Positions 958 through 34,807 of a DNA stretch of 34,807 nucleotides are shown in pieces. Within the stretch, counting starts at the first letter, position 1. Every line of letters begins with the position of its first letter. A program made the translations under genes and the position numbers. The notes under the pieces are model-generated. The model searched no databases, was not told where the DNA came from, and saw only the letters and a list, made by a program, of their open reading frames with translations. Origin of the DNA: a virus (taxonomy: Duplodnaviria > Heunggongvirae > Uroviricota > Caudoviricetes); the IMG/VR virus record IMGVR_UViG_2526164649_000022. The stretch is one strand, 5' to 3'.

Positions 958-1059
958 TAATCGCCTGGTAGACTGGCCCCCTGAATCTCCAGACAACCAG
1001 TATCACTTATTTAAGTGATAGTCTTAATACTAGTTTTTAGACTAGTCATTGGAGAACAG

Positions 1060-1425
1060 ATGATTGATGTCTTAGGGCCGGAGAAACGCAGACGGCGTAC
1101 CACACAGGAAAAGATCGCAATTGTTCAGCAGAGCTTTGAACCGGGGATGACGGTCTCCCTCGTTGCCCGGCAACATGGTGTAGCAGCCAGCCAGTTATTT
1201 CTCTGGCGTAAGCAATACCAGGAAGGAAGTCTTACTGCTGTGGCCGCCGGAGAACAGGTTGTTCCTGCCTCTGAACTTGCTGCCGCCATGAAGCAGATTA
1301 AAGAACTCCAGCGCCTGCTCGGCAAGAAAACGATGGAAAATGAACTCCTCAAAGAAGCCGTTGAATATGGACGGGCAAAAAAGTGGATAGCGCACGCGCC
1401 CTTATTGCCCGGGGATGGGGAGTAA
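1060..1425 (+). CDS. insC: IS2 transposase OrfA (InsC)
   Basis: [40 protein letters not shown] matches recalled InsC; the track ORF start at 1015 is an upstream extension. Confidence 0.9.
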
Positions 1426-2288
1426 GCTTAGTCAGCCGTTGTCTCCGGGTGTCGCGTGCGCAGTTGCACGTCATTCTCAGACGAACCGATGACTGGATGG
1501 ATGGCCGCCGCAGTCGTCACACTGATGATACGGATGTGCTTCTCCGTATACACCATGTTATCGGAGAGCTGCCCACGTATGGTTATCGTCGGGTATGGGC
1601 GCTGCTTCGCAGACAGGCAGAACTTGATGGTATGCCTGCGATCAATGCCAAACGTGTTTACCGGATCATGCGCCAGAATGCGCTGTTGCTTGAGCGAAAA
1701 CCTGCTGTACCGCCATCGAAACGGGCACATACAGGCAGAGTAGCCGTGAAAGAAAGCAATCAGCGATGGTGCTCTGACGGGTTCGAGTTCTGCTGTGATA
1801 ACGGAGAGAGACTGCGTGTCACGTTCGCGCTGGACTGCTGTGATCGTGAGGCACTGCACTGGGCGGTGACTACCGGCGGCTTCAACAGTGAAACAGTACA
1901 GGACGTCATGCTGGGAGCGGTGGAACGCCGCTTCGGCAACGATCTTCCGTCGTCTCCAGTGGAGTGGCTGACGGATAATGGTTCATGCTACCGGGCTAAT
2001 GAAACACGCCAGTTCGCCCGGATGTTGGGACTTGAACCGAAGAACACGGCGGTGCGGAGTCCGGAGAGTAACGGAATAGCAGAGAGCTTCGTGAAAACGA
2101 TAAAGCGTGACTACATCAGTATCATGCCCAAACCAGACGGGTTAACGGCAGCAAAGAACCTTGCAGAGGCGTTCGAGCATTATAACGAATGGCATCCGCA
2201 TAGTGCGCTGGGTTATCGCTCGCCACGGGAATATCTGCGGCAGCGGGCTTGTAATGGGTTAAGTGATAACAGATGTCTGGAAATATAG
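1383..2288 (+). CDS. insD: IS2 transposase OrfB (InsD), DDE integrase domain
   Basis: 301-aa ORF overlapping insC in the arrangement typical of IS3-family OrfA/OrfB. Confidence 0.9.
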
Positions 2289-2919
2289 GGGCAAATCCAC
2301 CTGGTCTGAACGCTCTCACCTCGTCCAGTGTGGGCAACAGAGAAAGTTGTTCTTTCATCTCCCGCTGACAGCGATAAATCTCATCGTTGCGCTCAACAAT
2401 GGCCTGTATCATCGCTGTGGCCAGTTCCTCAAGTTCCTGCGTCGTCAGCTGCACCTGCTGATTATCCGCATCACTCCACGTCATATTTGTTTGTGCCGCG
2501 ACAGATTTTGCCAGCATGACTACCGGGGACAGGCGGCCCAGTGAGTCGGGGCCAGCATTCCAGATACGACCGTTCCATTCAAACGTGAACGGCTTCGCCT
2601 CCTGTTCTGTGCGCCATGCTTCAATTTCCTGACGTCTGGCCTCTCTGGCCGCTTCCAGCATTTCTGGTGTCACAGTGAATGGGGCTATCTCACCCCATTT
2701 GCCACTTTGCAGTTCCTGCCAGATTCGCTGACCCGTCGGTGCGACATCATCAGCGGTGGCTGTGTAGGGGACTGCCTGGTCCCTGTCGTCAAAAAAAACG
2801 TCACAGTCTACTGCGCCACTTTCGGTATAACGGGGATTAATGATTTTTTTAATTTCCACGGTGCATTCCTCACGATGTGCGAATAAAAAGCCCGGGCATT
2901 GCGCCAGAGACATGAGCAT
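2122..2919 (-). CDS. Phage tail-module protein (putative second tail-fibre assembly/chaperone-like); phage-derived part is 2300-2919; C-terminus replaced by read-through into IS2
   Basis: Position directly downstream of a tail-fibre gene; removing IS2 and one duplication copy restores ...RAFRPGD followed by TAA. A GTG start at 2859 with a GAGGA Shine-Dalgarno is plausible instead of the ATG at 2919. Confidence 0.5.
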
Positions 2920-3223: not shown

Positions 3224-4272
3224 CCAGTCAGTCTGGATATGGGCCAGTAGCAGTAGCGGGTGTGATAAATGGGGCCGTTAATGCCGTAAAAAGTAAGGGA
3301 TTTGGCTCTGTACCGCGGTTCTGTTGTCTCAGGGCGTGCATCAGTCCACCGGATGCTGAGCCCCCCTTCAAACCGTGTGTCGGGTATGATGATGCCGTAG
3401 GGGCCAGCAACGGAATATTCAACTGGCAGCGCATTCCTTACCCAGGCCAGGAAATCACTCTTAGTGTCAAAACGGATAACATCTTCAGGCAGAAAAGCAC
3501 ACCCAAAGCCGAATGCGCCGGGTATCGCCAGACGGCCTTTTGTCCGGTCGTAAATGTCGCTCTGTGCTTCCATCGTGGCCGCACTTTTCAGCCCCAGATT
3601 ATCCCGGGACTTCTGTTGTGCCTTTTCGCCTGCTGCTGCGATTTCAGACAGATGGTTAGCCGTTTTCAGAGTGCCGGTCAGCGCAGCATCAATGTCATTT
3701 TTGGCCTGCTCTGCTGCGCGGGCATAACCTGCGGCTGCCTGTGCACGCTGACCGGATAAGACGGCGTTTTTCCCTGTGCTTTTCACGTCTTCCGCTGTGG
3801 CCTTTCTGTTCTCAGCTGTGACGCTTGCATCCTGTCGGGCTTTCTCCGCAAAACGTTGTGCATCATCACGGGCCGTTGCGGCTGCCGTCACATCCTGCGC
3901 CGTCTGCCGTGCGTTTCCGGCTGCGCTCCCGGCACTCTGCTGCGCCTGTTGCGCCAGCTCTTCGAATTTCTTCAGGGATTCCGGACGCAGGTCAATATCA
4001 GTTGCGCCCAGAAAATCATTCAGCGAACCGTCCGTTGAATCTTCATAAACGCGGATGACACCGATTTCTGAAAGGCGCTGTGTGCTTTGTGTCAGGCGAA
4101 CGCTGTACACACCCGGCAGAACGGGGAAGTCATATTCCCCGTTCTGTGTGGTGACATGGCTGAAAACACTTTTCAGAATCCCTGCACGGTTGTGCATGGA
4201 GGTTAGTGTAATGGTTGCGCCGCCCAGCGGTTCTCCCGTGGGCGTTTTAATCACACCTTTAAGCTGCGGCAT
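3220..4272 (-). CDS. Tail fibre protein with lambda side-tail-fibre-like N-terminal domain
   Basis: N-terminus MPQLKGVIKTPTGEPLGGATITL...VYEDSTDGSLNDFL resembles the lambda Stf N-terminal domain, followed by an Ala/Gln-rich coiled region and a distinct C-terminal domain. Confidence 0.7.
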   Translation of the reverse strand: MPQLKGVIKTPTGEPLGGATITLTSMHNRAGILKSVFSHVTTQNGEYDFPVLPGVYSVRLTQSTQRLSEIGVIRVYEDSTDGSLNDFLGATDIDLRPESLKKFEELAQQAQQSAGSAAGNARQTAQDVTAAATARDDAQRFAEKARQDASVTAENRKATAEDVKSTGKNAVLSGQRAQAAAGYARAAEQAKNDIDAALTGTLKTANHLSEIAAAGEKAQQKSRDNLGLKSAATMEAQSDIYDRTKGRLAIPGAFGFGCAFLPEDVIRFDTKSDFLAWVRNALPVEYSVAGPYGIIIPDTRFEGGLSIRWTDARPETTEPRYRAKSLTFYGINGPIYHTRYCYWPISRLTG

Positions 4273-4804
4273 CGGGACGCTCCGGCCAGTTGATGGCGTT
4301 ATATGTGGCTTTATCTGTGATGGTGCTGAAATCCATCGCCTGCAGTGATTTCGCGTAAATACGGTACGCTTTCAGCTTTTCTTTATCTTCGTCGCTGATT
4401 AACCCCAGCAGCAGGTCTTCTTCCCATTCCCCTGTCCGGGCACTGACCTGAGCCAGAAGGGCATCACGCTCATCTTCCGCTTTGAGTCTGTAGTCAAAGA
4501 CAAATTCATCATTGCGGTAAAACCAGTAACCCGGCGCGGTAATGCGGCGGTTGGCGGTAATATCAGGAACTTCAATAACACTGGCGTTACGGGGTTCAAT
4601 GCCTGTCACATCCTTACCGACCCACACCACGCGCCCGTCTCCGGTGTAAACCATTTTTATGGTGTCACTGGCAAAGTTCTTCTGTTCTTCATACCAGTTT
4701 TTGCCGTCTTCCGAAAAAAGCCAGGTGACATCATACTGTTTTGTCAGCTGATATTGTTCCGCGGTTTTCGGATTACCTGCCGTAATATTTTTTAAATGCA
4801 ACAT
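4259..4804 (-). CDS. Tail fibre assembly protein (Tfa / Mu U-like)
   Basis: MLHLKNITAGNPKTAEQYQLTKQYDVTWLFSEDGKNWYEE is the conserved N-terminus of lambda Tfa / P2 G / Mu U chaperones. Confidence 0.8.
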   Translation of the reverse strand: MLHLKNITAGNPKTAEQYQLTKQYDVTWLFSEDGKNWYEEQKNFASDTIKMVYTGDGRVVWVGKDVTGIEPRNASVIEVPDITANRRITAPGYWFYRNDEFVFDYRLKAEDERDALLAQVSARTGEWEEDLLLGLISDEDKEKLKAYRIYAKSLQAMDFSTITDKATYNAINWPERPDAAA

Positions 4805-4806
4805 TG

Positions 4807-5907
4807 TTAAATACTCGCTACGTTATACCAGGTGCCATTAATCAGTTTTTGCAGCGGTCGGTAATACACACCGTTGACGTTATCCGCTGAGTTACGGCCG
4901 GTATCCGATATCGATATCCCTGACAACCCGTGTCCCGAAGGTGCGCGAAATGTCCATGAAACAGTGTTACTGCCGGGGCCGTAATACATTTCATAACCAT
5001 ACCGCACATCCTGCACGCCACCATTTCGCTGCTGGTAACGGGCATCAAAGTTTCCGTAGTCTGACGGTGTTACCCGTCCTGTAACGTTTACAGCTTTATT
5101 ACTCTGGATACTGCCACTCTGAAAACGCAACACATGCACGCTATTGGCATAAACATCCAGCAGGCCATCACCATTCTGTTTAAATCCGGTGTCATTATCA
5201 CCAAGAACAATTGAATTCCCCCCCAGGGCGTTCTGAACGCCGATACCCAGCGCACCATTGACCTGCGAACCACCGCCAACAGACACTTTATGCGACATGG
5301 ATATTTCACCCGTCCGCAAATTAATGGTGAACGGGCGCAGGGGACCAATATCGCCATTTTCCCCCTGACCTTCACTGGTGGGAATAAGGTGAAGGCACTC
5401 TTCCGAACGACGAAAAATCAGGCCAAAAGCTTCGTTGAAAATCCTCAGCGCATTAACACCACGGATTTTCAGCTCCCCTGTCATCGTGCCGCCTGATTGT
5501 TTTATGACTTTCAGTGCATCTGCAAAATCTGTTGCACTCTCTTTGCCGAGAATACCGCGCACAAAAGCACTGAGCGGCGTTAATGCCATTGTGTCTTTGC
5601 CGGTAAAATAAGGGAATGTATTATTCTGACCGGTTAATCCGGCAATAGCACCGGCTGAACCACTGTTCGTAATAAACAGCTTTTTCAGCGCCGTCATAAT
5701 CTGGTCGGTTGTGTTTTTATCCGGTTTGATATTTGCCTGCCGGAGTATTTCCAGTAATTCAGACTGAATAATATTAAACCAGTCCGGCCCCGGATACGTG
5801 GGCGGAATACCGTTCCCGCCTTCGGTGAAATAAAGCGTTGTTTTGCTTAATTCAGCTGCGACAGGTGGCATTACCGGCACACCCGTCGGGTTATCCACAT
5901 AAAACAT
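4807..5907 (-). CDS. Tail fibre protein (Mu S position)
   Basis: 366-aa Gly/Ser-rich ORF between baseplate genes and tfa; gene-order inference. Confidence 0.6.
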   Translation of the reverse strand: MFYVDNPTGVPVMPPVAAELSKTTLYFTEGGNGIPPTYPGPDWFNIIQSELLEILRQANIKPDKNTTDQIMTALKKLFITNSGSAGAIAGLTGQNNTFPYFTGKDTMALTPLSAFVRGILGKESATDFADALKVIKQSGGTMTGELKIRGVNALRIFNEAFGLIFRRSEECLHLIPTSEGQGENGDIGPLRPFTINLRTGEISMSHKVSVGGGSQVNGALGIGVQNALGGNSIVLGDNDTGFKQNGDGLLDVYANSVHVLRFQSGSIQSNKAVNVTGRVTPSDYGNFDARYQQRNGGVQDVRYGYEMYYGPGSNTVSWTFRAPSGHGLSGISISDTGRNSADNVNGVYYRPLQKLINGTWYNVASI

Positions 5908-5910
5908 AAA

Positions 5911-6495
5911 TTATTCTCCGGTGTAATAATATTCATATTCCGTGCCCGCCAGCCGGTAATGCTTCAGCAGGCATTCCAGCTCACGGGGGCGTTCGCTGAT
6001 TAATGGTGTCATGACGCCATCAATACAGGTAAACCGCCCGGCATCTTTACCCGGGACGTTCACTTTCAGCATCCAGCGATACCGCGCCGGATGCAGCGGA
6101 TACATGCAGTCGCGCAGACAGTGGTGCGGCAGAACGGCTGTCACCTTAATGGTGAAGCCCAGCGCCGCTGCTGCGGCTTCAGTCTGCCAGGTTGCCAGCC
6201 CGCCCCTGCGACGGTATTTCTCCACCACGGCACGGCGGCGGGCTTCCCTGGTGGTGGGGGCAATTCCGCATTCCGGCAGCGCCAGATACTGCTCCCACTC
6301 CGGCAGCAGCCGGAGCGTGGTTTCCGGGCGCATCTCCACATGCAGACGCGAGGCGTCGTATTCAGTGCGGTTTAAACGTTCTGCAAGCGCCCTTAAAAAG
6401 CGGTTTAAATCCGCGTCGTTATCACGCGGCCATGCCTTACCCCGTGGCATGACCTGTTGCAGTGCGGCCAGCCATTCCGTCACGCTGTGAGCCAT
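5911..6495 (-). CDS. Baseplate/tail protein (Mu gp48-like)
   Basis: 194-aa ORF at the gp48 position between the baseplate J-like gene and the fibre gene. Confidence 0.55.
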   Translation of the reverse strand: MAHSVTEWLAALQQVMPRGKAWPRDNDADLNRFLRALAERLNRTEYDASRLHVEMRPETTLRLLPEWEQYLALPECGIAPTTREARRRAVVEKYRRRGGLATWQTEAAAAALGFTIKVTAVLPHHCLRDCMYPLHPARYRWMLKVNVPGKDAGRFTCIDGVMTPLISERPRELECLLKHYRLAGTEYEYYYTGE

Positions 6496-7556
6496 GTCAC
6501 CTCCCCGATGGTGATAAGCTCATCCACATCACTGGTGGTGTCCTCCCCGATGTTAAGGAAGTAATCCGTGATGCCGGACGTCATACCGATGGCCGTGCGC
6601 AGCGAGGACACCGGCAGCGTCTGACCGGGTGCCAGTGTCTTCTGTAACGCGGTCAGGTTTGCCCGGACGGCGCTCCTGTTCGCCAAGCTGTCCGGTGTCA
6701 GACGGATGGATATGCTGACTTTCTTCAGCCTGACCTGTACCGGCCAGACCTCAATGCCGCCCGGTTTACCCACCATGACGCCCGTGGCCGGGTGTTTGTG
6801 GCAGAACAGATACTGCTCCATTGTCTTCAGGTCTTCGCGGGTTGGCACGATGTTTTCCCGGTCATCATAAAGCCATGCCAGCCCGACCGTGCCGGGGCCG
6901 TGCCATGCATCCCACGCCCACGCGCGGCTGACGCCCGGCACTTCACGCGCCCATATCACGTAGTCATGCAACGCGCCGCCTGTCGGTGGATTGCGGCGCA
7001 CATACAGCAGACGGTCCAGCAGCGCTGCGATGGATTCAGTGTCTGCGCCACCGGTGATGCCACCTTCAGCCACCGCGCCTGTGCTGGCCGTTCCGGGCAG
7101 CGGGGACAGCAGGGTGAGTACGGCACCGGCAGCAAGATTGCCCGCCACACCGGCTTCTTCAGCCTGCACGATGACGGTGACCTCGCCGTCCTGCACCTCG
7201 CCGGACGTGAGTACCTGATACACCTGGTTCGTGTCGGACTGCATCCGGGTTTCTGCCGGAAGGGGGGACTGACTGGTGAAGGTCACCCGCCCGCTGGCAA
7301 AGGTGGCCTGCTTGCGGATAACCCCTTCATACTTTGCTGTTTTGATAATGGTTTCATCATCAGACGTGGTGGACGGGATTATCTGGTCCTTAATCCAGCT
7401 CTGATGGTCGTATAAATCCCGGACCTGACTGCTGAATGACACGTTCAGCGCCTGCTCAACACTGACAGGCGGCAGCTTTTGCAGGCCGAGTTCATACGCA
7501 ATATCTTTTTCGCCGTCGGCAATCAGTTTGCCCAGCGTGGGGATTTCATACGGCAT
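6480..7556 (-). CDS. Baseplate J-like protein (Mu gp47-like)
   Basis: 358-aa ORF, size and order match baseplate J family in Mu-like tails. Confidence 0.65.
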   Translation of the reverse strand: MPYEIPTLGKLIADGEKDIAYELGLQKLPPVSVEQALNVSFSSQVRDLYDHQSWIKDQIIPSTTSDDETIIKTAKYEGVIRKQATFASGRVTFTSQSPLPAETRMQSDTNQVYQVLTSGEVQDGEVTVIVQAEEAGVAGNLAAGAVLTLLSPLPGTASTGAVAEGGITGGADTESIAALLDRLLYVRRNPPTGGALHDYVIWAREVPGVSRAWAWDAWHGPGTVGLAWLYDDRENIVPTREDLKTMEQYLFCHKHPATGVMVGKPGGIEVWPVQVRLKKVSISIRLTPDSLANRSAVRANLTALQKTLAPGQTLPVSSLRTAIGMTSGITDYFLNIGEDTTSDVDELITIGEVTWLTA

Positions 7557-10865: not shown

Positions 10866-12685
10866 TAACCCTGCTCCACGCTGGTGACGCCAGCCTGCGC
10901 ACTGAGTCTGACGCCGGGTTGATCCACTCTGACGCTTTTCACGCGGGCATCACCTTCCACCACCACACGGATTTCCCCCTGCAATTGTTGCGGAAGGAAA
11001 GGATAATTCTGTGTGGGTTGCATACCTGCCCACGGTCGCGGGTCGGCAATGTTCTTGTCACCCAGCGAATTAAACCAGTCCGTTACCTTACGCCAGACGG
11101 ACTCGAGCGCTTTCTGGTTATCCTGGCTTTGTTGAGCGAACTCGCGCTCCCACGGGCTGGCGCTGGCATCACCGGCAACGAATTTTGTAAGGCTGTCAAC
11201 CTCACCTGGTAGGGCATATTGCGTGGTCAGAAAATCGTAAAACTCCAGAGCACCGGCAATGATGCCAGCGCCTTTACCTGCCTTTCCTCCACAGTTACCC
11301 GAACCTCGTGGATTGCGTGGGTTACGGGGATTGCGCGATGAATCCGGCGCATCCGGCAGACCGCCGGTATTACCCTTCAGCCCGCCACTGCCCATATTGA
11401 CCACATAAACCGGCATCACGCCGGAACCAAAAACATCCGTAATGCTGCCGGGTATCCCTTTGCCTTTCCCTTTGGGATTCATGATGTCGTGGATGGTTTT
11501 ACCGAACCTGTACGTCTTTCTGATGGCGATAATGCCGCCCAGCGCCGCCATATATTTACCGACCTGCAACCAGTTCTGGACAGTGTTCTGGTCCACGCTG
11601 TTAATGGCATCCGCCAGATCCTGAACGGGCTTTGCCAGTTGCCCTTCAGCGAAACGTTGCCATTCGTTATTCAGCGACTGCATCGCGGCATTAAAGCCTT
11701 CGGCATTGGTCTGTGCGGCCTTTTGCGTGGAACCCTGTTCAGCCATGCCGTAAATCATTTTCTCCAGCAATTGCCGGTTCTCCGGGCTGAGTAACGCCTT
11801 AATCCCCTGCATCCCGGTCTGATCAAACACATCCTGAAGTTTCAGCGGGTCGTATTTAGCCCGTTTGAGGATTTCCATCATCAGTTCATAGGGCTTTTTA
11901 ATGTCTTTTGTGCCTTTGACAAAAACGTCAACCCCGTTTTTTTTCAGGAACTCAATGTTCTTTTTGTCCGACAGGGAGGCATACATGGCCTGAATACTGG
12001 TCACTGTCTCATCAATGCTGCCTTTGTTTTTGGCAAACACCTGAGCAAATGCCCCCATCTGCGCAATGGCTTCCGGTCCCTGATCCTGAATGATGGAAAA
12101 CAGTTTCGGGGCCGCGCGGGCAACATCAGCAACGCTGACAGAACCCACCGCGAACTGTGCATACAACCTGTCCATTGTGTTGCTGACCGCATCAGCGCCC
12201 CGGACACCTTTTTCCCAGAACTGCGCCATCATCCCGGCTGCCACCTGTCCGTCAACACCAAACGCCTGCATAAACAGCCCCATGTTGCGCAGGTTGTCCA
12301 CCACATACTGATAATCACCGGTTTTTCCCAGCAGGGCATCAACCCCTTCACCGAGGGCTGAGGCATCAATACGGATATCCTTCTGACTGGAAACGTCCCG
12401 GATCGCGTTCTTCAGCGTGTTGACCTGCTCTGCGTTTAATTTGGCATTGGTTCCCATACGCCGCATCTGAGCATCAAAATCAGCCACGCCTTTTACCGTC
12501 ATGCTGCCACCAAGCTCGGCAATCATCGCCGTGTAGCGGTTGCCAAGCGCATCCAGACTGCGCCCAGCGGCGTCGGTTGTGGCTTTGACCAGGCGCATGG
12601 CTTTCTGGTTATTCCGGGCGAACTGCGACATATTCGCGCCATACTGCCGGGCTTTGGCGGTCAGGTTCCCGGCAAGGTTGATCAT
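10865..12685 (-). CDS. Tail tape measure protein, apparently intact, start MINLAGNLTAK at 12685
   Basis: About 606 aa, Ala/Gly/Gln-rich with Gly-rich C-terminal segment; the track ORF (to 12847) is extended by read-through from the IS600 end. Confidence 0.75.
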   Translation of the reverse strand: MINLAGNLTAKARQYGANMSQFARNNQKAMRLVKATTDAAGRSLDALGNRYTAMIAELGGSMTVKGVADFDAQMRRMGTNAKLNAEQVNTLKNAIRDVSSQKDIRIDASALGEGVDALLGKTGDYQYVVDNLRNMGLFMQAFGVDGQVAAGMMAQFWEKGVRGADAVSNTMDRLYAQFAVGSVSVADVARAAPKLFSIIQDQGPEAIAQMGAFAQVFAKNKGSIDETVTSIQAMYASLSDKKNIEFLKKNGVDVFVKGTKDIKKPYELMMEILKRAKYDPLKLQDVFDQTGMQGIKALLSPENRQLLEKMIYGMAEQGSTQKAAQTNAEGFNAAMQSLNNEWQRFAEGQLAKPVQDLADAINSVDQNTVQNWLQVGKYMAALGGIIAIRKTYRFGKTIHDIMNPKGKGKGIPGSITDVFGSGVMPVYVVNMGSGGLKGNTGGLPDAPDSSRNPRNPRNPRGSGNCGGKAGKGAGIIAGALEFYDFLTTQYALPGEVDSLTKFVAGDASASPWEREFAQQSQDNQKALESVWRKVTDWFNSLGDKNIADPRPWAGMQPTQNYPFLPQQLQGEIRVVVEGDARVKSVRVDQPGVRLSAQAGVTSVEQG

Positions 12686-12752
12686 GATTTCCGTGCTGAG
12701 ACGGCTACCTGAGGTGTACTGGCAATAGCGGACACTACCATTTGTTCTTTTT

Positions 12753-13571
12753 TTAAGCAGCCATCTGATGATATTTTTCCCTGAAGGCTGCCGGGGAGAT
12801 ATTCCCCAGACGAGAGTGACGACGCTGACGATTGTAGAAAATCTCAATGTATTCCCGTATTACTGAGATGGCTTCATCCCGGTTATTAAAACGATAGTGG
12901 CTCAGGCTCTCATTTTTCAGCGTTCCCCAGAAGCTTTCCATCGGAGCGTTGTCGTAACAGTTACCTTTACGCGACATTGATGTTTTCAGACCAGACTGCT
13001 CCTGTATGACCCGGTAATCGTATGCGCAGTACTGTGAACCTCGATCAGAGTGGTGGATTAGCCCGGCAGGTGGGCGCTGGCTCCTGAGCGCCATAAACAG
13101 GGCTTTACCTGTCAGCTCTTTTGTCATGCGCTCTCCCATGGCGTAGCCGACAATTTCACACGTATAAACATCTTTGATGCCAGCGAGGTACAACCATCCC
13201 TCCTGTGTGGCAACATACGTCAGGTCCGCCACCCAGACCTGATTTGGTGCTGTAGGAGCGAACGTCTGGTTCAGCAGATTTGGCGCAACTGGCAGATTGT
13301 GGTTCGGGTTCGTAGTCGCTCTGAACTTGCGTTTCTGCTTACAGCGTAGCCTTAGCTCCTTACGAAGACGTGCCAGTCGGTCACGACCAACGATGATGCC
13401 ATTCTCTGCCAGCTCCGTCTGGAGCCGCCGGGTTCCATATGTTTCGCGAGTGCGGATATGTGCCACCTTAATCTCCAGTTTTAGCCGCTCATCACTTTGT
13501 TTTCTGTCTGAGGGTTCATGCTGTACCCAGTTGTAATAACCGCTCCTGGATACACCAAATACCTGACACAT
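12753..13571 (-). CDS. IS600 transposase OrfB (DDE integrase domain)
   Basis: 272-aa ORF with IS3-family integrase features, downstream of OrfA. Confidence 0.9.
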   Translation of the reverse strand: MCQVFGVSRSGYYNWVQHEPSDRKQSDERLKLEIKVAHIRTRETYGTRRLQTELAENGIIVGRDRLARLRKELRLRCKQKRKFRATTNPNHNLPVAPNLLNQTFAPTAPNQVWVADLTYVATQEGWLYLAGIKDVYTCEIVGYAMGERMTKELTGKALFMALRSQRPPAGLIHHSDRGSQYCAYDYRVIQEQSGLKTSMSRKGNCYDNAPMESFWGTLKNESLSHYRFNNRDEAISVIREYIEIFYNRQRRHSRLGNISPAAFREKYHQMAA

Positions 13572-13606
13572 CGCTTCAATGGGAAATTGTTGTCGCCATT
13601 GTTCGA

Positions 13607-13909
13607 TTAACGCGTATTTTTCAGCGACTCCTGTGCAAAATACGCTGTTGCTTTTTTTAATATATCTCGCTCAAGGCGAGCTTCATTTAACGCCTTACGC
13701 AGTTGCAGAATTTCAGATTCCAGTTCAGCCACCGTGCGGGAACCAGGAGTACCGAGCCCTTTTCTGGCGGCGGTAACCCATTGTCCTAAAGTGCCTTCAG
13801 GAAGGGATAATCGGGAAGCGCCTTCACTGATCGAAAGTTGATTTTCAAGAACCGTTCTGACAGCTTCGGCTTTGAACTCTTTAGAGTAACGTTGGGTTTT
13901 TCTGCTCAT
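13607..13909 (-). CDS. IS600 transposase OrfA (HTH/leucine zipper)
   Basis: 100-aa ORF MSRKTQRYSKEFKAEAVRTVLENQLSISEGA..., typical IS3-family OrfA. Confidence 0.9.
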   Translation of the reverse strand: MSRKTQRYSKEFKAEAVRTVLENQLSISEGASRLSLPEGTLGQWVTAARKGLGTPGSRTVAELESEILQLRKALNEARLERDILKKATAYFAQESLKNTR

Positions 13910-13965
13910 TATTAGCTCCTTCTGATGCCATTCTATTTCAGGAAGGAGTGTCCGTTAAACTCAGG

Positions 13966-14181
13966 CTACCTCAACCTGTTGCCATACTGTTTCTCCAGTT
14001 GCTTTATCAGGCGGAACAACTGCCGCAGGGGCAGTTGTTCCAGGTACTGAATGCTGAATCGCGAAGACAGGTTAACCAGCAGGTTCATCAGTGCCGCCGC
14101 CAGCGGCATCAGTTCGCCCCCGCGTTGCCACCTCCTCAAGCATGTCATCCAGCACAGCCGCTTTCGTGCTGATAAGCTCAA
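13966..14181 (-). CDS. Frameshift extension frame of the tail assembly chaperone (G-T-like); last two codons and stop lie in the IS600 terminus
   Basis: ORF overlapping the 3' end of the chaperone gene in another frame, with a G5 run (C5 on plus strand, 14117-14121) at the overlap. Confidence 0.45.
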   Translation of the reverse strand: MSLSARKRLCWMTCLRRWQRGGELMPLAAALMNLLVNLSSRFSIQYLEQLPLRQLFRLIKQLEKQYGNRLR

Positions 14182-26662: not shown

Positions 26663-27060
26663 GAATCCCCCTTATGAAAACGGCGCTGATGTTTATAAAG
26701 TGCCGCACAAAAGATACCGCCCAGCCAGAACGCCAGCTGATAAGGCTCCTTCAGATAAAGAAGGCCGAATGTCAGCATGAAAAAACCAACGGCCCAGACC
26801 ACCCATGACCACACGACAATTCGAAGGGAGGCGGCCCGGAAACGCCTTTTGGGTTGCAGGCGATAAGGTACGTTGCCCAGCTGGAAACTGTGAATCAGGC
26901 AGAGTGTCGCGCCGTATGCCAGCACCATGACCGCAAACGCCCGCCATCCGGCAAAACAGCTCGCCAGAAAAAGTACTGCCGACAGCCCCAGAAACGACCA
27001 CTGGCACAACATAAAGCGGGAGTAAATAACGCGAACAAAAAGACTATTCATTCTGTGCAT
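26650..27060 (-). CDS. Multi-pass membrane protein (holin-like candidate)
   Basis: At least three hydrophobic segments; internal Met start (MHRMNSLF...) at 27060 preferred over the track start at 27156. Confidence 0.4.
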   Translation of the reverse strand: MHRMNSLFVRVIYSRFMLCQWSFLGLSAVLFLASCFAGWRAFAVMVLAYGATLCLIHSFQLGNVPYRLQPKRRFRAASLRIVVWSWVVWAVGFFMLTFGLLYLKEPYQLAFWLGGIFCAALYKHQRRFHKGDSWTR

Positions 27061-27271
27061 TGAGTTTTTCCTTGTACTTCTGGCACTGCCAGAAAATGTC
27101 CCGTGTATCCACGGTGTTCCAGCCACGCATGTAGTAGCTGGCGTGTGTGCCGTCATGGCCGGTATAGTCCAGCGGTTTCGGAGGCGGACCTCCGGCCATA
27201 CGGTGCAGAACCTCCTGACGCAGGCGGTCGCGTCGCCCGGCTTTCAGTGAGGCATCCCAGCCTTTGCCCAT
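27044..27271 (-). CDS. Hypothetical small protein downstream of endolysin
   Basis: 75-aa ORF starting 2 nt after the endolysin stop; no recognisable domain. Confidence 0.3.
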   Translation of the reverse strand: MGKGWDASLKAGRRDRLRQEVLHRMAGGPPPKPLDYTGHDGTHASYYMRGWNTVDTRDIFWQCQKYKEKLNAQNE

Positions 27272-27272
27272 A

Positions 27273-27860
27273 TCACCCCCGCGTGGCGGACGGCGCGTTG
27301 TCGATGATTTCCAGACAGGCGTCGGTCAGTTCTTCCATGCGGTTAAACCATCCGTTCAGGTATTTGCCCTGGGCGGGTTTTGATTTGATGATGTCGGCAT
27401 AAAAGCGGGAACGACGGACAATACAGCGGGTCAGCAACCAGTCCGGGTTAGACAGGTTCACGGCCCTGCGGGTACGCGGGCCGATGATGCCGTCAGCATC
27501 CACATCAGCGGCTTCCTGCAAAATTCTGATGGCTTTTTTAACGCCATGCTGAACCGCCGCATCGAACACAAACAGCGCTACACCATCAGGCCACTGCTCA
27601 CACCCGGCTGGCAGCCAGTAATCGCGCCAGTAAATCTGCGCAGCCTGTTCGCGGGTCAAATCTTTGATGCGGGTATCCGGTTTGCCGTCTCCGTTGACGT
27701 CGGTTTTGCCGTCAATCACACCGTCGCGGCGGTCAGAAATGCCGTATCTGGTTTCGCCGCCACGGTCAGTGGGGTCATTGACATAGACGCCTTCGATATC
27801 GGGACGCAGAATAAAATTCAGCGCATACTCAAAGGCCGGGGAGAATTTTTGATTTTCCAT
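27273..27860 (-). CDS. Endolysin (glycoside hydrolase family 108-like with peptidoglycan-binding domain)
   Basis: 195-aa ORF, first gene after the Mor-family activator and terminator; family call from recalled motif architecture. Confidence 0.65.
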   Translation of the reverse strand: MENQKFSPAFEYALNFILRPDIEGVYVNDPTDRGGETRYGISDRRDGVIDGKTDVNGDGKPDTRIKDLTREQAAQIYWRDYWLPAGCEQWPDGVALFVFDAAVQHGVKKAIRILQEAADVDADGIIGPRTRRAVNLSNPDWLLTRCIVRRSRFYADIIKSKPAQGKYLNGWFNRMEELTDACLEIIDNAPSATRG

Positions 27861-27915
27861 AAAAGCACCTGTGAAGCAGATTTAAACGTGGTCTGCTTCA
27901 TGGTGCCGGAGGCAT

Positions 27916-27941
27916 AAAAAAAGCCGGATTTACCGGCTTCA
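27916..27941 (-). terminator. Putative intrinsic terminator after the Mor-family gene (end of early/middle operon), upstream of endolysin
   Basis: 7-bp stem AAGCCGG/CCGGCTT, 5-nt loop, T7 tract on the minus strand; identical to the element at 20365-20390. Confidence 0.5.
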
Positions 27942-27945
27942 TTGA

Positions 27946-28395
27946 TTAAGGACGTCGTGGCGGACGACGAACGGGGTGAGGCAGGTTCGGGGAGTGGTAA
28001 AACAAATCCGGCTGGTATTTATTACACTCCAGACGCCGCATCCGCTTGATGGCCTTGTAGACGGTTTTATACGTCACCCCGTAACGCTGAACCAGTTCAG
28101 GAATATTATGGCCGTTAAAATCACGCCAGATACGCATATCCCGGACAAGATTCTCCAGAATATTCCCCCTCGGAACATAAACCTGCATCCCGCCGATATA
28201 GCGACAAATCGCCACAACCAGCTCAAGGGAATGGGCAGGGTCTGCGCCAATCCGGGCCAGCTCTTTACGCAGCAGTGCGTTCAGTTCAGAAAGTAACGCC
28301 GGATAAGCCGTGTTTTCCTGGTAATCGTTAAGGTATTCCAGAACGCTGTCGTCCCGGAAGTCTTCGAATAAATCCTGCTCTTTCATCTGTTTCAT
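27946..28395 (-). CDS. mor: Mor/C-family transcriptional activator of middle/late genes
   Basis: 149-aa ORF directly downstream of GemA-like gene with C-terminal helix-turn-helix region (ELVQRYGVTYKTVYKAIKRMRR), as in Mu Mor/C. Confidence 0.7.
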   Translation of the reverse strand: MKQMKEQDLFEDFRDDSVLEYLNDYQENTAYPALLSELNALLRKELARIGADPAHSLELVVAICRYIGGMQVYVPRGNILENLVRDMRIWRDFNGHNIPELVQRYGVTYKTVYKAIKRMRRLECNKYQPDLFYHSPNLPHPVRRPPRRP

Positions 28396-28943
28396 ACAGC
28401 AATTCTCCCGCTGTTTCGTGCGCGGGCATACGCACTGGTCAGTGCATCATAGCCGCGCAGCTCCTGCCCGGTTTCGCTCACAGGTAAAGGCACACCATGT
28501 CGGGCAAAGGCTTCACGGATGCAGCGCATATGCCACTGTTTGAGCGTTTCGAGCACAACCTGCAACGATTCCCCGTGACACCAGGCCAGCGTGGAAACAC
28601 CCTGACCGCCATTACGTCTGGCTGTCAGGCGTTCAACGTATTTGTCCAGCGCAGCGTCGCTGATATCGGAGACGAAACCATCAAGGAACATCTGCTGCCA
28701 GATTTTATAAATCTTCTCGCGCGGTGTGACATGCCCCTTAAAGCGACGGCGGGGATGTTTTTTCTGCTTCTTAAAACCGCGCTCTTTCATGGCATCGAGC
28801 ACACGTTCCAGTTGTGCAACGGAAAGCTCGCGGCAACTGGTTTTGCCCGTGCACTGCACCAGAAAGGTGCGGTAAGTGTCATCGTCGAGTTGCAGGTCAC
28901 GACGGGCAACATGAATTAATTTAATCAGGGATGTGCAGCTCAT
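28392..28943 (-). CDS. gemA: GemA-like protein (Mu gp16-like)
   Basis: 183-aa ORF immediately upstream of the Mor-family gene, matching Mu gemA-mor order. Confidence 0.55.
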   Translation of the reverse strand: MSCTSLIKLIHVARRDLQLDDDTYRTFLVQCTGKTSCRELSVAQLERVLDAMKERGFKKQKKHPRRRFKGHVTPREKIYKIWQQMFLDGFVSDISDAALDKYVERLTARRNGGQGVSTLAWCHGESLQVVLETLKQWHMRCIREAFARHGVPLPVSETGQELRGYDALTSAYARARNSGRIAV

Positions 28944-29081
28944 TATGTCCCCCCGGATTTAAAATTAATTCGGTGTTGAATAGCTCTTTACTCATTCGAT
29001 GTAGCACATCGAGGGCGGCAACTGCCGCTACTTTATCCTGGCTGGCAATGATTTTTCGTAATTCCTCAATAATCCAGGCTG
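28921..29081 (-). pseudogene. 3' fragment of an early-region gene truncated by IS1
   Basis: The reading frame ending at 28921 continues upstream only into IS1 sequence; the phage-derived part is about 53 codons. Confidence 0.35.
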
Positions 29082-29136
29082 GGTAATGCTGCCAACTTAC
29101 TGATTTAGTGTATGATGGTGATTTTAAGGTGCTTGC

Positions 29137-29412
29137 GTGGCTTCCATTTCCATCAGATGTCCTTCCTGCTCCGCTACTGAAGGCGTGGTGCGTAACGGCA
29201 AAAGCACTGCCGGACATCAGCGCTATCTCTGCTCTCATTGCCGTAAAACATGGCAACTACAGTTCACTTACACCGCCTCTCAGCCCGGTACGCACCAGAA
29301 AATCATTGATATGGCCATGAATGGCGTCGGATGTCGCGCCAGTGCACGCATTATGGGCGTTGGCCTCAACACGGTTTTACGTCACTTAAAAAACTCAGGC
29401 CGCAGTCGGTAA
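29137..29412 (+). CDS. insA: IS1 InsA
   Basis: 91-aa [42 protein letters not shown]... matches recalled InsA. Confidence 0.9.
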
Positions 29413-29834
29413 CCTCGCGCATACAACCGGGCAGTGATGTGATTGTCTGCGCTGAAATGGACGAACATTGGGGCTACGTCGGTGCTAAATCACGTCAGCG
29501 CTGGCTGTTTTACGCGTATGACAGGATACGGAGGACGGTTGTGGCGCACGTCTTCGGTGAACGCACTCTGGCCACACTGGAGCGTCTTCTGAGCCTGCTG
29601 TCGGCCTTTGAGGTCGTGGTATGGATGACGGATGGCTGGCCGCTGTATGAATCACGCCTGAAGGGAAAGCTGCACGTTATCAGCAAGCGTTACACTCAGC
29701 GCATTGAGCGACATAATCTGAATCTGAGACAACATCTGGCAAGGCTGGGACGGAAGTCACTGTCGTTCTCAAAATCGGTGGAGCTGCATGACAAGGTCAT
29801 CGGGCATTATCTGAACATAAAACACTATCAGTAA
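29331..29834 (+). CDS. insB: IS1 InsB reading frame (expressed as InsAB' by -1 frameshift)
   Basis: ORF overlapping the insA 3' end and ending ...[15 protein letters not shown], as in IS1. Confidence 0.85.
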
Positions 29835-29880
29835 GTTGGAGTCATTACCCGGATTTTGACGTTCATTGTCAGCGTTCCTT

Positions 29881-30159
29881 TCAGTGGCATGTTTTTTCAA
29901 CAGCCATTTCAGTGACACGGCCACCGGTGATGACACTATCGTTTTTCAAAATCTCGATAGCTTCATGGGCTGACTCATTAATTATTTTCTGGCTTTTATT
30001 AAGCACCAGTAACGCCACCATGCCAGCAAGTGTACCCTCATCACCGTCCAGTTCCGCACTACCGTCCACCGCAATGCTGGTGCGCAAATTCAGTCCTTTA
30101 ATTCCAGATACTGTATTTTTAATTTCAATAATTACTTTTGCCATTTTGTTATTCCTCAC
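29881..30159 (-). CDS. Hypothetical early-region protein
   Basis: 92-aa ORF between IS1 and the B gene; no recognisable domain. Confidence 0.4.
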   Translation of the reverse strand: MRNNKMAKVIIEIKNTVSGIKGLNLRTSIAVDGSAELDGDEGTLAGMVALLVLNKSQKIINESAHEAIEILKNDSVITGGRVTEMAVEKTCH

Positions 30160-30176
30160 AAATAAATAAGCCGTTA

Positions 30177-30404
30177 TTAACGCCAGATAATCTGGCAGCC
30201 ATTAAGGCGGGCCGTCCATACTGAACGGGCAACCCCTGATTTATGCTCCATAATCCTGACAGCGTTTCTGACCAGCTCCGGTGGTGGGCAGGTGATTTCA
30301 AGTACCGGACGCGCCACGCCGAGATATGATTCATTTACGTGACTCCCGTGCGCCTGTAACCAGTTCTGCGCATCCGTTGCCATTTTTATATTTCGTGACA
30401 TCAT
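30177..30404 (-). CDS. Hypothetical small early protein at the position of Mu kil
   Basis: 75-aa ORF immediately downstream of B; positional inference only. Confidence 0.35.
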
Positions 30405-30419
30405 GGTTTATGTCCTTTA

Positions 30420-31370
30420 CTACCAGTTCAGTAACCTGGGGTTGCTGTAAGCCTCCTTAAAAGCCGCTTTAATGTGACTTTTATTCAGGGATGTGCCTGC
30501 ACCTTTTGCCGCCAGCCACGCATGATTCAGTGTGTGAGTTAATACACGCAATTCCCCGGGCTTTTCGGCTACCCTCATCAGCAGGTCCAGCTCATCTTCC
30601 TGTGTTACTCCCCATGCTTTGGCTACAGCCATCACATCGGTCTTTTTTACTTTGCGCAGTTGTTTTGTCATGGCAAAACGGCTGAACAGACGGGCCAGTT
30701 CATCAGTCCCACGACGGGTGGCATCCGCCATCTGTTTCGGGTTGCCAATTAAAACCATCCCCACGCCAGTGGCATCCTGAATGGCGCGTAATTGCTCCAG
30801 ACCATCCACACTTAAGTGATCAGCTTCATCAATAATCAGAAGGGGGTTAACACGGCCACTGGTTTCTTTACCACCACCCAGTTTTCTGCGAATGGCGCGG
30901 GTTATATTCCCCTTATTTCTTCCCGGATTATTAATTTCCAGCGCATATGCTATTTCAAGGAGGCATTCCGTTACGCTCGAATGTGCCGGAGCAAGAGTCA
31001 CCATCCAGGCATTAGCTGTCCTGCGACAATATTCCCGGGCAGCAAAGGTTTTTCCGACACCCGGTACGCCAACAACGACACTGATAATCCCGAGTGAGCG
31101 CACTGTTTTAAACAGCTCATGCAAATCACAAAATGTCTGGGTCTTCACAACACCAGGGGTACCTGACAAGTTCTGTCCCTTCTGCCAGACCTGATACCAT
31201 TTCTGTAATTTGTCATGCATACCTTCGACATTACCGTTGTACTCTCCTTTACGCAGAGCCGAGAGTGTTGCCGGAGACATTCCGGCTTCATCAGCAATAT
31301 CTTCCTGAGACTTGTCGCCCTCGTTAATCAAAGCGTTAATAGTGTTGAAAACATCATCAATATCAGTCAT
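30420..31370 (-). CDS. B: Mu B-like AAA+ ATPase (transposition target-DNA activator)
   Basis: 316-aa ORF with Walker A GVPGVGKT, immediately downstream of the transposase gene. Confidence 0.85.
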   Translation of the reverse strand: MTDIDDVFNTINALINEGDKSQEDIADEAGMSPATLSALRKGEYNGNVEGMHDKLQKWYQVWQKGQNLSGTPGVVKTQTFCDLHELFKTVRSLGIISVVVGVPGVGKTFAAREYCRRTANAWMVTLAPAHSSVTECLLEIAYALEINNPGRNKGNITRAIRRKLGGGKETSGRVNPLLIIDEADHLSVDGLEQLRAIQDATGVGMVLIGNPKQMADATRRGTDELARLFSRFAMTKQLRKVKKTDVMAVAKAWGVTQEDELDLLMRVAEKPGELRVLTHTLNHAWLAAKGAGTSLNKSHIKAAFKEAYSNPRLLNW

Positions 31371-31445
31371 AGTATTTCCTCGGTTATTTCAAATCAGCTT
31401 TGTTTCCTTTATTTAACAGTCCGTTCCCGCGGACTGTTTTTTTAT

Positions 31446-33273
31446 TCAGGCCAGCGGATCATCTTCTTCCTGCATGGCAAAAAGTTTTTGCATCCCCAGC
31501 CGGAAATCGCGTTCAAATTCTTCGTCATGCTCTTCTTCATATTCCGGTTGCTGAACTGCCACCACATTACCAACCGGGCGATAAACATTACTCAGCCAGG
31601 GTTCAGCCTGTTTGTGTTCCAGAATCTGAATACCTTCATCTTCAGCATCACGAATTTTTTCCTCAGCGCGTTTGCGCATTCCTTTAATACGCTGCTGTTG
31701 TTTGTGATATTCAGCACTGACAGCAAAGGCTGCGCGTTTATTGCCGTTCCATATCGCCTCACAGATAAAGCTGCCGTCCTTGCGACGTACCGTAATTCGC
31801 TCGGCGTCATGAATGTCATAACTGATAAGCACTTTGCGACCGTGTTCGTCACGCAACTCCGGCGCGTAGTAAATATTGTTCAGCCACTGAATTTCGCAGC
31901 GTCTTACCGGTCGTTCCACCATTGGGCGGAACATGTCGCGCAGCTCAAGATCACTCAGCCACTCAATTTCGGTGTCTTCTTCTGCCAGGCGTTTTTTCTG
32001 AACTCTGTCGGGCTGTAATGCCGTCCGTTCGGTTTCATCGGCAGCTCAGAATGCGGGCGGTTGTTGTACCATTCCACGCCTTCACGAATAGCCTCAATAA
32101 GCTCCGCCCACGATGGCAGCTCGCGCATTGCCGCTTTCTGGCGGTCGTTCAGAGGCTTGTCCTGTTGCAGGGCGTTAAACGCTGAACGCAGATCACGGTT
32201 AAGTACACGCAACGATTCCCGGTCAGCACCCTTGCCAAAATAGGTGCGATACCTCCTGGCTATACGCATCGGCAGTGTCCGGTTCAGGCGTTCAATAATG
32301 CCGCGTCCCTGTGGATTACCGGCAATACCGGTAGGGTGTTTAATCCCCAGGCGTGGCAGAATACCCACGACCTCTTTGTCCAGCATGTCAGCCGTTTCAC
32401 CGGAACCGTTATCCGAGTAATACAGGAACGGTTTTCCGTGGTTGCGAATGCCGTGCTGTATCGCACCGGCAACGGCGAACACGTTTTCGGCAAGGTCAAG
32501 ACTCCAGCCAACAACAAACCGTGTTCCACCATCGATCACAAACGTGACTTCCGGTGAGAATGGACGCCCGTGGATCGGATGCGCACATTTCAGCTTCATA
32601 CCGTGACCGTCACCAATCCAGACATAATTCACCGGCATAGCTGTCCAGTCGCGGCGGGTGAATCCTTCAAGCTGACGGTATTCACTGCCGGTAACGCGCC
32701 CTTTTTGTTTCACCACTTCCGGCAGTTTTTTCATGGCATACCGGACAACATCATAGGAAGGCATCACCTCCAGCATGTACGGTTCGTCCGCATGGCGACG
32801 CTGCCATTCTGCGACAAAATCCTCGTAGGCTTCTGACATGGGTCTGCCGTTCACCTGGCGATACTGCGCCAGAAATTCAGGCAGCCAGCTGATTTCTTCC
32901 GGTTTTATTTCGTCGCGTTTTCCCGGTGCCAGTAACAGCAGCCGTTCGGCGGCGTTCTGCGACTGGTTGTATTTCAGAACCCACTGGTAAAGTGGATCGC
33001 GGCTGATAGTACGATTAGCGCCACGTTTTGCATTGGCGTTAACTGCGGCCTGTTGCAGGCGCTCCGGCAGCTCACCTTTACGGGCTTTTTCAACAAGAAA
33101 GTTAATGGCTTTCAGTCGCCCGAGGTTACCGGCGCTTTCCAGCTTCAGCACTTCCACCACCAGCGCAGCTCTTGCTTCAGATACCCAGCGCTGGTTTTCG
33201 GTCAGCGCATTCAGGCGTTCTTCCATCAGTTGTGGAGAACCGCGATATGCTTCGATTGCCTGGACAGCGTCAG
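31446..33273 (-). pseudogene. A: Mu A-like DDE transposase, central and C-terminal parts, frameshifted in a T6 run (31992-31997) and severed from its N-terminus by IS600
   Basis: ORFs 31955-33322 and 31446-31934 align to consecutive MuA regions in different frames (...VWIGDGHG... catalytic core; ...NNIYY...DGSFICEA domain III). Confidence 0.8.
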
Positions 33274-33337
33274 TGAGGTAGCCTGAGTTTAACGGACACT
33301 CCTTCCTGAAATAGAATGGCATCAGAAGGAGCTAATA

Positions 33338-33640
33338 ATGAGCAGAAAAACCCAACGTTACTCTAAAGAGTTCAAAGCCGAAGCTGTCAGAACGGTTCTT
33401 GAAAATCAACTTTCGATCAGTGAAGGCGCTTCCCGATTATTCCTTCCTGAAGGCACTTTAGGACAATGGGTTACCGCCGCCAGAAAAGGGCTCGGTACTC
33501 CTGGTTCCCGCACGGTGGCTGAACTGGAATCTGAAATTCTGCAACTGCGTAAGGCGTTAAATGAAGCTCGCCTTGAGCGAGATATATTAAAAAAAGCAAC
33601 AGCGTATTTTGCACAGGAGTCGCTGAAAAATACGCGTTAA
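33338..33640 (+). CDS. IS600 OrfA (copy 2; one Ser-to-Phe difference from copy 1)
   Basis: 100-aa ORF identical to copy 1 except SRLSLPEG to SRLFLPEG. Confidence 0.85.
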   Translation: MSRKTQRYSKEFKAEAVRTVLENQLSISEGASRLFLPEGTLGQWVTAARKGLGTPGSRTVAELESEILQLRKALNEARLERDILKKATAYFAQESLKNTR

Positions 33641-33675
33641 TCGAACAATGGCGACAACAATTTCCCATTGAAGCG

Positions 33676-34493
33676 ATGTGTCAGGTATTTGGTGTATCCA
33701 GGAGCGGTTATTACAACTGGGTACAGCATGAACCCTCAGACAGAAAACAAAGTGATGAGCGGCTAAAACTGGAGATTAAGGTGGCACATATCCGCACTCG
33801 CGAAACATATGGAACCCGGCGGCTCCAGACGGAGCTGGCAGAGAATGGCATCATCGTTGGTCGTGACCGACTGGCACGTCTTCGTAAGGAGCTAAGGCTA
33901 CGCTGTAAGCAGAAACGCAAGTTCAGAGCGACTACGAACCCGAACCACAATCTGCCAGTTGCGCCAAATCTGCTGAACCAGACGTTCGCTCCTACAGCAC
34001 CAAATCAGGTCTGGGTGGCGGACCTGACGTATGTTGCCACACAGGAGGGATGGTTGTACCTCGCTGGCATCAAAGATGTTTATACGTGCGAAATTGTCGG
34101 CTACGCCATGGGAGAGCGCATGACAAAAGAGCTGACAGGTAAAGCCCTGTTTATGGCGCTCAGGAGCCAGCGCCACCTGCCGGGCTAATCCACCACTCTG
34201 ATCGAGGTTCACAGTACTGCGCATACGATTACCGGGTCATACAGGAGCAGTCTGGTCTGAAAACATCAATGTCGCGTAAAGGTAACTGTTACGACAACGC
34301 TCCGATGGAAAGCTTCTGGGGAACGCTGAAAAATGAGAGCCTGAGCCACTATCGTTTTAATAACCGGGATGAAGCCATCTCAGTAATACGGGAATACATT
34401 GAGATTTTCTACAATCGTCAGCGTCGTCACTCTCGTCTGGGGAATATCTCCCCGGCAGCCTTCAGGGAAAAATATCATCAGATGGCTGCTTAA
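33676..34493 (+). pseudogene. IS600 OrfB (copy 2), frameshifted by a 1-bp deletion
   Basis: Copy 1 reads AGCGCCCACCTGCC, copy 2 AGCGCCACCTGCC (about 34171-34176); ORF splits into 33676-34188 and 34269-34493. Confidence 0.8.
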
Positions 34494-34536
34494 AAAAAGA
34501 ACAAATGGTAGTATCCGCTATTGCCAGTACACCTCA

Positions 34537-34807
34537 CAGGATTGCGTGTTTTTCTGGTAACAGCTTTCACTTCAGAAACATTGTTCTCTGTAGCCACCAG
34601 CTGTTCCACATAGCGTTCACGCAGTGCCTTTCGTGTTATTTCAGGCAGACAATCAATGTGGTACTCAATGGCTTTTGTGCCTTCCCGACGGCGACTAACG
34701 TCACCAAGATCACGAGAAAAACGCTGTAACGCCTGTCGGATGCCTTTTGTGGTGGCTGGCATTCCTGGTACGCCGAGCAGGTCATTTACGGTAACGTACG
34801 ACTGCAT
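34537..34807 (-). pseudogene. A: N-terminal 90 codons of the Mu A-like transposase gene, separated from the rest by IS600 copy 2
   Basis: ...GTKAIEYHIDCLPEITRKALRERY resembles the recalled MuA N-terminus (...GGKAIEYNANSLPVEAKAAL...); in frame with the 31955-33273 segment once IS600 and one duplication copy are removed; ATG at 34805-34807. Confidence 0.75.

Follow-up and report, generated by a model that had tools for sequence, protein, structure and literature searches.

An IS1-bounded 3.1-kb deletion in the early region of a defective Mu-like prophage of Shigella flexneri

The window analysed here, a stretch of 34,807 nucleotides from a tailed-phage record (IMGVR_UViG_2526164649_000022), is a decaying, defective Mu-like prophage of Shigella flexneri. 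The prophage is read on the minus strand and carries, in this order, the gene for transposase A (split), B, kil, a homologue of Mu gp7, IS1, a gene fragment, gemA, mor, a GH108 lysozyme gene and the late genes (Table 1). The Mu-like early order A, B, kil, gp7, gemA, mor is thus kept in the window, and gam with its neighbours is found only in relatives. The 92-aa ORF to the right of IS1, which the original prediction had singled out for comparison with phage early proteins, is indeed an early protein; its length was better set at 87 aa, from the ATG at 30144, as the Mu gp7 homologue.

Table 1. Positions of the IS elements, early genes, gene remnants and junctions in the window
Feature	Position	Strand	Description
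IS2	969-2299		1,331 bp; duplication CCTGG
IS600, second copy	12710-13973		1,264 bp; duplication ACC
mor (Mu gp17 homologue)	27946-28395	-	149 aa, intact
gemA (Mu gp16 homologue)	28392-28943	-	183 aa, intact; 78.6% identity to Mu gp16; PF06252
3' remnant of 111-aa ORF	28921-29081	-	codons 59-111, 100% identity by tblastn; full ORF in L017 and L019
Left 9-bp flank of IS1	29073-29081		TCCAGGCTG; junction newly made by the deletion
IS1	29082-29849	+	IRL 29082-29104, IRR 29827-29849
insA	29137-29412	+	91 aa; zinc ribbon and HTH; PF03811 (6e-20), PF12759 (5e-30)
insB' frame	29331-29834	+	167 aa; DDE_Tnp_IS1 (PF03400), E = 1e-73
Right 9-bp flank of IS1	29850-29858		CGGATTTTG; surviving copy of the original target-site duplication
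gp8-like stub	29850-29866	-	17 nt (ATGAACGTCAAAATCCG) of the 139-aa gene first interrupted by IS1
Mu gp7 homologue	29881-30144	-	87 aa, intact; 96.6% identity to Mu gp7
kil homologue	30177-30404	-	75 aa; 91.9% identity to Mu Kil; PF26843 listed for the identical gene
Transposition protein B	30420-31370	-	316 aa; upstream edge of the accessory early region
IS600	33274-34536		in transposase A, at about codon 90; 3-bp duplication CAG
Deletion junction, window allele			AATAATCCAGGCTG joined to GGTAATGCTGCC
Simple-insertion junction			CATTTCGGATTTTG joined to GGTAATGCTGCC
Empty site			CATTTCGGATTTTGACGTTCAT

The IS1 copy is complete, as had been predicted, and measures exactly 768 bp. Its terminal inverted repeats agree at 20 of 23 positions (GGTAATGCTGCCAACTTACTGAT and GGTAATGACTCCAACTTACTGAT), in keeping with an IS1 family that is defined by a length of about 768 bp and by imperfect terminal inverted repeats of about 23 bp starting GGT(A/G)ATG. 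The coding organisation is likewise that of the family: insA, which matched the Pfam entries Zn_ribbon_InsA and HTH_Tnp_IS1, and the insB' frame are joined by an A6C -1 frameshift motif (AAAAAAC) located at 29388-29394, within their overlap. The element shares 99.6% identity with a copy annotated as IS1F and 100% identity with the IS1 of a related S. flexneri locus, L017, described below. A hybrid promoter reading from IS1 into gemA and mor was considered and dropped, as the minus strand at the IRL end, which faces gemA, showed no outward sigma-70-like promoter; the sole promoter-like site seen at this end is the inward one of insA (29089-29116).

The 9-bp sequences on the two sides of IS1 had been predicted to differ, and only 3 of their 9 positions proved identical (TCCAGGCTG on the left, CGGATTTTG on the right). 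When either boundary was moved by as much as 6 nt and duplications of 5 to 14 nt were considered, nothing better emerged (best matches 4/5, 5/7 and 6/9), so a cryptic duplication with shifted IS1 boundaries does not exist. The 8-mer CCGGATTT, found at 28953-28960 and again across the right IS1 junction at 29848-29855, was rejected as a chance recurrence, since half of the right copy lies inside IS1 and the true duplication, as seen in L017, is of the CGGATTTG type (CGGATTTTG). The other three IS elements of the window (one IS2 and two IS600) are ordinary simple insertions that retain their duplications, and the loss is therefore specific to IS1.

The truncated gene that was thought to abut IS1 on the left is the 3' end of a 111-aa ORF, which IS-free relatives have in full. 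An ORF called across this junction (28921-29256) starts inside IS1, matched no Pfam family and is a spurious chimera. Both junction-spanning ORFs, of 111 aa and 105 aa, should be treated as annotation artefacts, and 28921-29081 as a pseudogene remnant.

For comparative analysis, the decisive loci were recovered by exact-protein look-ups using the GemA and gp7-like proteins of the window. The exact GemA protein is present in 74 collection blocks, of which 24 were read. A search of the phage collection returned IS1 matches and a match of Mu and SfMu to the right flank only, with no close IS-free phage record; the informative relatives were E. coli prophages and, above all, the loci from the exact-protein look-ups. 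Three allelic states of the region were found in public genomes: IS-free, with a simple IS1 insertion, and with the insertion plus a deletion.

The IS-free state is represented by the prophage L019 (GCA_013946285.1), which has a single copy of CGGATTTTG at the place of insertion and in which the gp7-like gene is followed by ORFs of 139 aa, 95 aa, 174 aa (Gam), 184 aa, 179 aa, 60 aa, 120 aa and 111 aa and then by gemA. The 139-aa ORF spans 3673-4092 of this locus and contains the duplication sequence at 3681-3689, which is the basis for the 17-nt stub in Table 1. In the IS-free E. coli prophages L001, L002 and L003, a gene block including a Gam-family gene likewise lies between gemA and the gp7-like gene, and in L003 the two IS1 flanks of the window map about 2.8 kb apart.

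The inserted state was found in L017 (GCA_900457175.1) and similar contigs, so that a pre-deletion allele with the same IS at the same site exists. L017 has the full gene set of L019 together with an IS1 that separates the gp7-like gene from the 139-aa ORF, and is identical (100%) to window positions 27000-29082 and 29080-31997, the whole IS1 included. A perfect 9-bp duplication, CGGATTTTG, absent as a pair from the window, encloses its IS1; the same IS1 junction is the breakpoint of L020 and L021. The duplication on both sides in L017 and the single copy in L019 identify the L017 allele, by comparison of the loci, as a simple IS1 insertion that lies 9-17 nt inside the 139-aa ORF and has the canonical 9-bp duplication. 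It follows that the window element is a true IS1 whose duplication went later.

The deleted state is shared by the window, L015/L009 (S. flexneri 2850-71) and L018 (CP024470, S. flexneri 71-2783). The contig AKMV01000036.1 is 100% identical to the window over 13.4 kb, and its assembly (GCA_000268085.1) is listed as S. flexneri 2850-71 (PMC6397287). CP024470 belongs to a strain of serotype 3a (PMC5754485); its assembly is PacBio-based and is flagged as draft owing to an unresolved repeat. Two independent assemblies, one of them PacBio-based, share the allele, which excludes an artefact of assembly. The deletion junction was absent from 5,426 complete E. coli genomes, in which only IS1 ends with a spurious extension were matched; this specific allele is thus lineage-restricted, yet already in public assemblies. 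A look-up of the junction-spanning 105-aa ORF returned AKMV01000036.1 only, and is no measure of the number of carriers because the start codon is called differently in other assemblies.

Relative to L017, 3,126 bp (3737-6862) are missing from the window, consisting of 3,117 bp of unique phage DNA (L019 3690-6806) and one copy of the duplication. The gap begins exactly at the insA-proximal terminus of IS1: the first IS1 base, at window position 29082, abuts the equivalent of L017 6863, which is window position 29081, so that the left flank TCCAGGCTG is a sequence that lies 3.1 kb from IS1 in the pre-deletion allele. IS1 and the right flank are unchanged from L017 (100%), and an endpoint on the IS terminus beside an intact element is what an adjacent deletion leaves.

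The proteins encoded by the missing segment were taken from L019 and compared with the Mu proteins by BLASTP and with Pfam. The deletion removed the homologues of Mu gp8 (139-aa ORF, 90.6% identity), gp9 (95-aa ORF, 88.4%), gp10 or Gam (174-aa ORF, 91.4%; Phage_Mu_Gam, PF07352, 1e-43) and gp11 (179-aa ORF, 85.2%; Gp11_C), as well as the 184-aa ORF (DUF5420 according to the NCBI annotation of E. coli relatives), the 60-aa ORF, the 120-aa ORF and codons 1-58 of the 111-aa ORF, these last four ORFs having no Mu match. When all lost proteins were searched by tblastn against the whole window, only residues 59-111 of the 111-aa ORF were found (29082-28924), so gam and the rest have not moved elsewhere in it. 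The prediction that no Gam-like gene is recognisable, and that gam and other accessory early genes may have been lost, is therefore borne out by the comparison with L017; the further gene named in it, cim, is not a label used in the Mu RefSeq record. The interval between gemA and B is also short compared with Mu, as had been suggested: from the stop codon of B to the start codon of gemA it measures 1,476 bp, of which 768 bp are IS1; the corresponding lengths are about 3.9 kb for Mu and about 3.8 kb for the IS-free L019.

The aligned alleles demonstrate the order of the events, with insertion first and deletion second, and their exact endpoints. The first step was a simple insertion of IS1 9-17 nt into the gp8-like early gene, which produced the 9-bp duplication CGGATTTTG and is a state that survives in other strains. 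The second was the loss of 3,126 bp, from the IRL of the same IS1 to a point inside the 111-aa ORF just upstream of gemA; the event can be read from the alleles, and we infer its mechanism. A breakpoint that falls exactly on an IS terminus is the mark left by transposase action or by recombination between IS copies, and a missing target duplication is generally attributed to an adjacent deletion or to IS-IS recombination (PMC11708052). The original prediction had proposed an IS1-mediated adjacent deletion or recombination between IS1 copies, and this is supported by L017, where the duplication and the intact region occur together; the sequence fits both routes.

The two explanations in which IS1 plays no part in the deletion can be given little weight. 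That IS1 simply entered an early region that had always been short, and that its duplication was later lost by mutation, would agree with the variability of accessory early regions among Mu-like phages (L002 is without two ORFs of L003). We give this practically no credence: the flanks agree at only 3 of 9 positions with no shifted duplication, and they correspond to two sites 3.1 kb apart at 100% identity in L017 and 99.9-100% in the IS-free L019, by which it is refuted. Contrary to what a simple insertion into a short region would require, L019 does not have the short gene content of the window. A deletion unrelated to IS1, through illegitimate recombination, replication slippage or an assembly collapse that happened to abut the element, is very improbable. 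The junction sequence that was lost and the one that was kept share a microhomology of 2 nt (TG), or of 3 nt if the first G of IS1 is counted, but this is at chance level; a breakpoint on the terminal nucleotide of IS1 would be a coincidence of about 1 in 3,000 over a region of about 3 kb, and a collapse is contradicted by the two independent assemblies, including the PacBio-based CP024470.

The most likely mechanism, which we consider probable, is a one-step adjacent deletion by intramolecular replicative transposition. The IS1 transposase would have joined the ends of the element to the target TCCAGGCTG within one DNA molecule, and the segment in between would have left as a circle and been lost; IS1 would remain with its other flank untouched and with no duplication around it. 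This reading is favoured because it needs one event, because IS1 is classically known for it and because no second IS1 was found at the left breakpoint in any of the 24 contigs with the identical GemA that were read. A two-step route is clearly less likely, though it retains a real share of the probability: a second IS1 in the same orientation would have inserted at TCCAGGCTG in the 111-aa ORF, giving a junction of the form GAGTCATTACC+TCCAGGCTG+GACTTAATG, or GAGTCATTACC joined to TCCAGGCTGGACTTAATG, and homologous (RecA) recombination between the two copies would then have excised the 3.1 kb, so that a single IS1 remained, its two flanks coming from different insertions. It predicts exactly the structure seen, with the same end sequence as the one-step deletion, and recombination between IS copies is among the recognised reasons why a duplication is missing (PMC11708052). 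The genome of S. flexneri contains very many IS1 copies, so second insertions should be frequent, and the independent IS1 junctions nearby, at L019 positions 4817 (L014, L016) and 4946 (L013), make second hits plausible. As 24 of the 74 GemA-bearing blocks were read, an intermediate with two IS1 copies might also exist. Against this route, none of the contigs read contained the double-IS1 intermediate, and two events are required where one is enough. The identity (100%) of the window IS1 to the L017 copy, when other IS1 copies in the prophage family each differ from it by 1 nt (at position 558 or 648), also points away from it; the argument is weak, as a local copy of the same element would be identical too.

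Adjacent deletions have classically been described for IS1 in the gal region of E. coli, also as intramolecular replicative deletions, and are long established. The present case shares with them a complete IS1 that stays in place, one unchanged flank and the loss of one copy of the 9-bp duplication, as well as a start exactly at the IS1 terminus and an extension to an arbitrary nearby site. No mechanistic difference is apparent from the sequences, the distinction being that natural S. flexneri alleles, and not products of laboratory selection, are compared here. Recombination between directly repeated IS copies would also leave a single IS with unmatched flanks and without the intervening DNA, but needs a second IS1 3.1 kb away, which was not seen among the related loci.

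The region corresponds to the semi-essential early region of Mu and SfMu (gp5 kil to gp16 gemA), with which it shares gene order and close homologues. Identity to Mu is 92% for Kil, 97% for gp7, 79% for GemA and 61% for Mor, and for the gp8, gp9, Gam and gp11 homologues of intact relatives it is 85-91%. Unlike Mu, the window has neither gp8 to gp11 nor the small ORFs that precede gemA, and both the window and its relatives are without a gp6 homologue; the extra 184-aa (DUF5420) and 111-aa ORFs of the relatives have no counterpart in Mu by BLASTP. Where aligned, the window is about 93% identical to SfMu, which indicates that the two Mu-like phages are related yet distinct. Mu-like prophages, some complete and others remnants, were reported across several S. 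flexneri serotypes (PMC4406740); the window is such a remnant, and that paper is without IS-level anatomy.

The functional effect of the deletion, which ends directly upstream of gemA, was probably small. The IS600 in transposase A, which leaves a 625-aa truncated A product in both L017 and L018, splits the gene, and the prophage would thus already have been defective before the deletion; IS1, moreover, had by then entered the early operon on the upstream side of gemA and mor. On such a crippled background, the deletion has the look of one more step in the neutral erosion of a dead prophage. It belongs to a known class of event, the IS1-bounded deletions that affect prophage remnants in IS-rich Shigella genomes, and is textbook IS-driven prophage decay, not a new phenomenon; the finding leaves knowledge of IS1, Mu and Shigella genome reduction unchanged. 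The label that suits the region in an annotation is that of a defective Mu-like prophage with a 3.1-kb deletion bounded by IS1. The empty, inserted, and inserted and deleted alleles form a clean natural example of how a target duplication goes missing, and could help to mark lineages of S. flexneri.

IS1 copies in the opposite orientation truncate the same early region in other S. flexneri loci, at 9819-10586 in L013 and at 2853-3620 in L014 and L016. In L013 (strain K-227) the element lies just past gam and is joined to host DNA adjoining mutS; in L014 (strain J1713) and L016 (GCA_031671475.1) it lies inside gam and is joined to an integrase island beside smpB. The phage-side endpoints, given as L019 positions, are 4946 for L013 and 4817 for L014 and L016. 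The L013 and L014 junctions were considered as the two halves of one split insertion, which was rejected because their phage-side endpoints overlap by 130 bp; they are therefore independent events. With the window included, there are four distinct IS1 junctions within about 3 kb across S. flexneri strains. This clustering could be non-neutral, reflecting either a regional target preference or selection that silences early lytic or toxic functions of a prophage that is kept, in which case losing gp8 to gp11 together with gam would have been an adaptive step of domestication; we consider this improbable.

The early region is mosaic. The right flank in the window is closest to prophage 1 of E. 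coli FDAARGOS_943 (99.8%), and the 135 bp adjoining gemA (28947-29081) match only prophage 2 of FDAARGOS_943 and the STEC1575 prophage (about 95%). At the site of these 135 bp, prophage 1 differs in its ORFs, one of which is a reverse-strand gene at the position of Mu gp15. Elsewhere in the window, 11080-11303 gave no megablast match to the otherwise about 99% identical FDAARGOS_943 prophage, and 11304-12711 is 89.6% identical to it; together, 11080-12711 form a divergent part of the putative tape-measure gene.

The prophage lies inside a UbiD-family gene (316-aa truncated product), downstream of rpoS and of MarR-family and flavoprotein genes (L009 1-2340; L013 1-3600). This is the polymorphic rpoS-mutS region, and the IS1-bounded truncation in K-227 reaches its mutS side. 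The window starts at the exact end of a mom-region CDS and ends, at 34807, with the ATG of transposase A, which places the repressor/ner end and both host junctions outside it.

Single-base deletions in T runs were observed at about 31992-31998 and about 25551 relative to L017, L018 and L019, and for the site in the A gene also relative to the E. coli prophage L026. The deletion at about 31998 splits transposase A into ORFs of 455 aa and 162 aa. As these deletions occur in the window and the 2850-71 draft assembly only, sequencing errors in homopolymers, as opposed to real mutations, may account for them. The orfB of the IS600 in transposase A is split into 170-aa and 74-aa parts by a 1-nt deletion at about 34173 relative to one E. 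coli copy of IS600; the same split is called in CP024470 (L018), and is thus probably real.

The IS2 is located at the extreme 3' end of a DUF4376 gene of the tail-fibre region, beside a com-like gene. The second IS600 lies about 10 nt into a long gene that corresponds to a 1,794-bp 'hypothetical protein' gene (likely tape measure) of the E. coli relative. The two IS600 copies of the window differ by 3 mismatches and 1 gap (99.7% identity).
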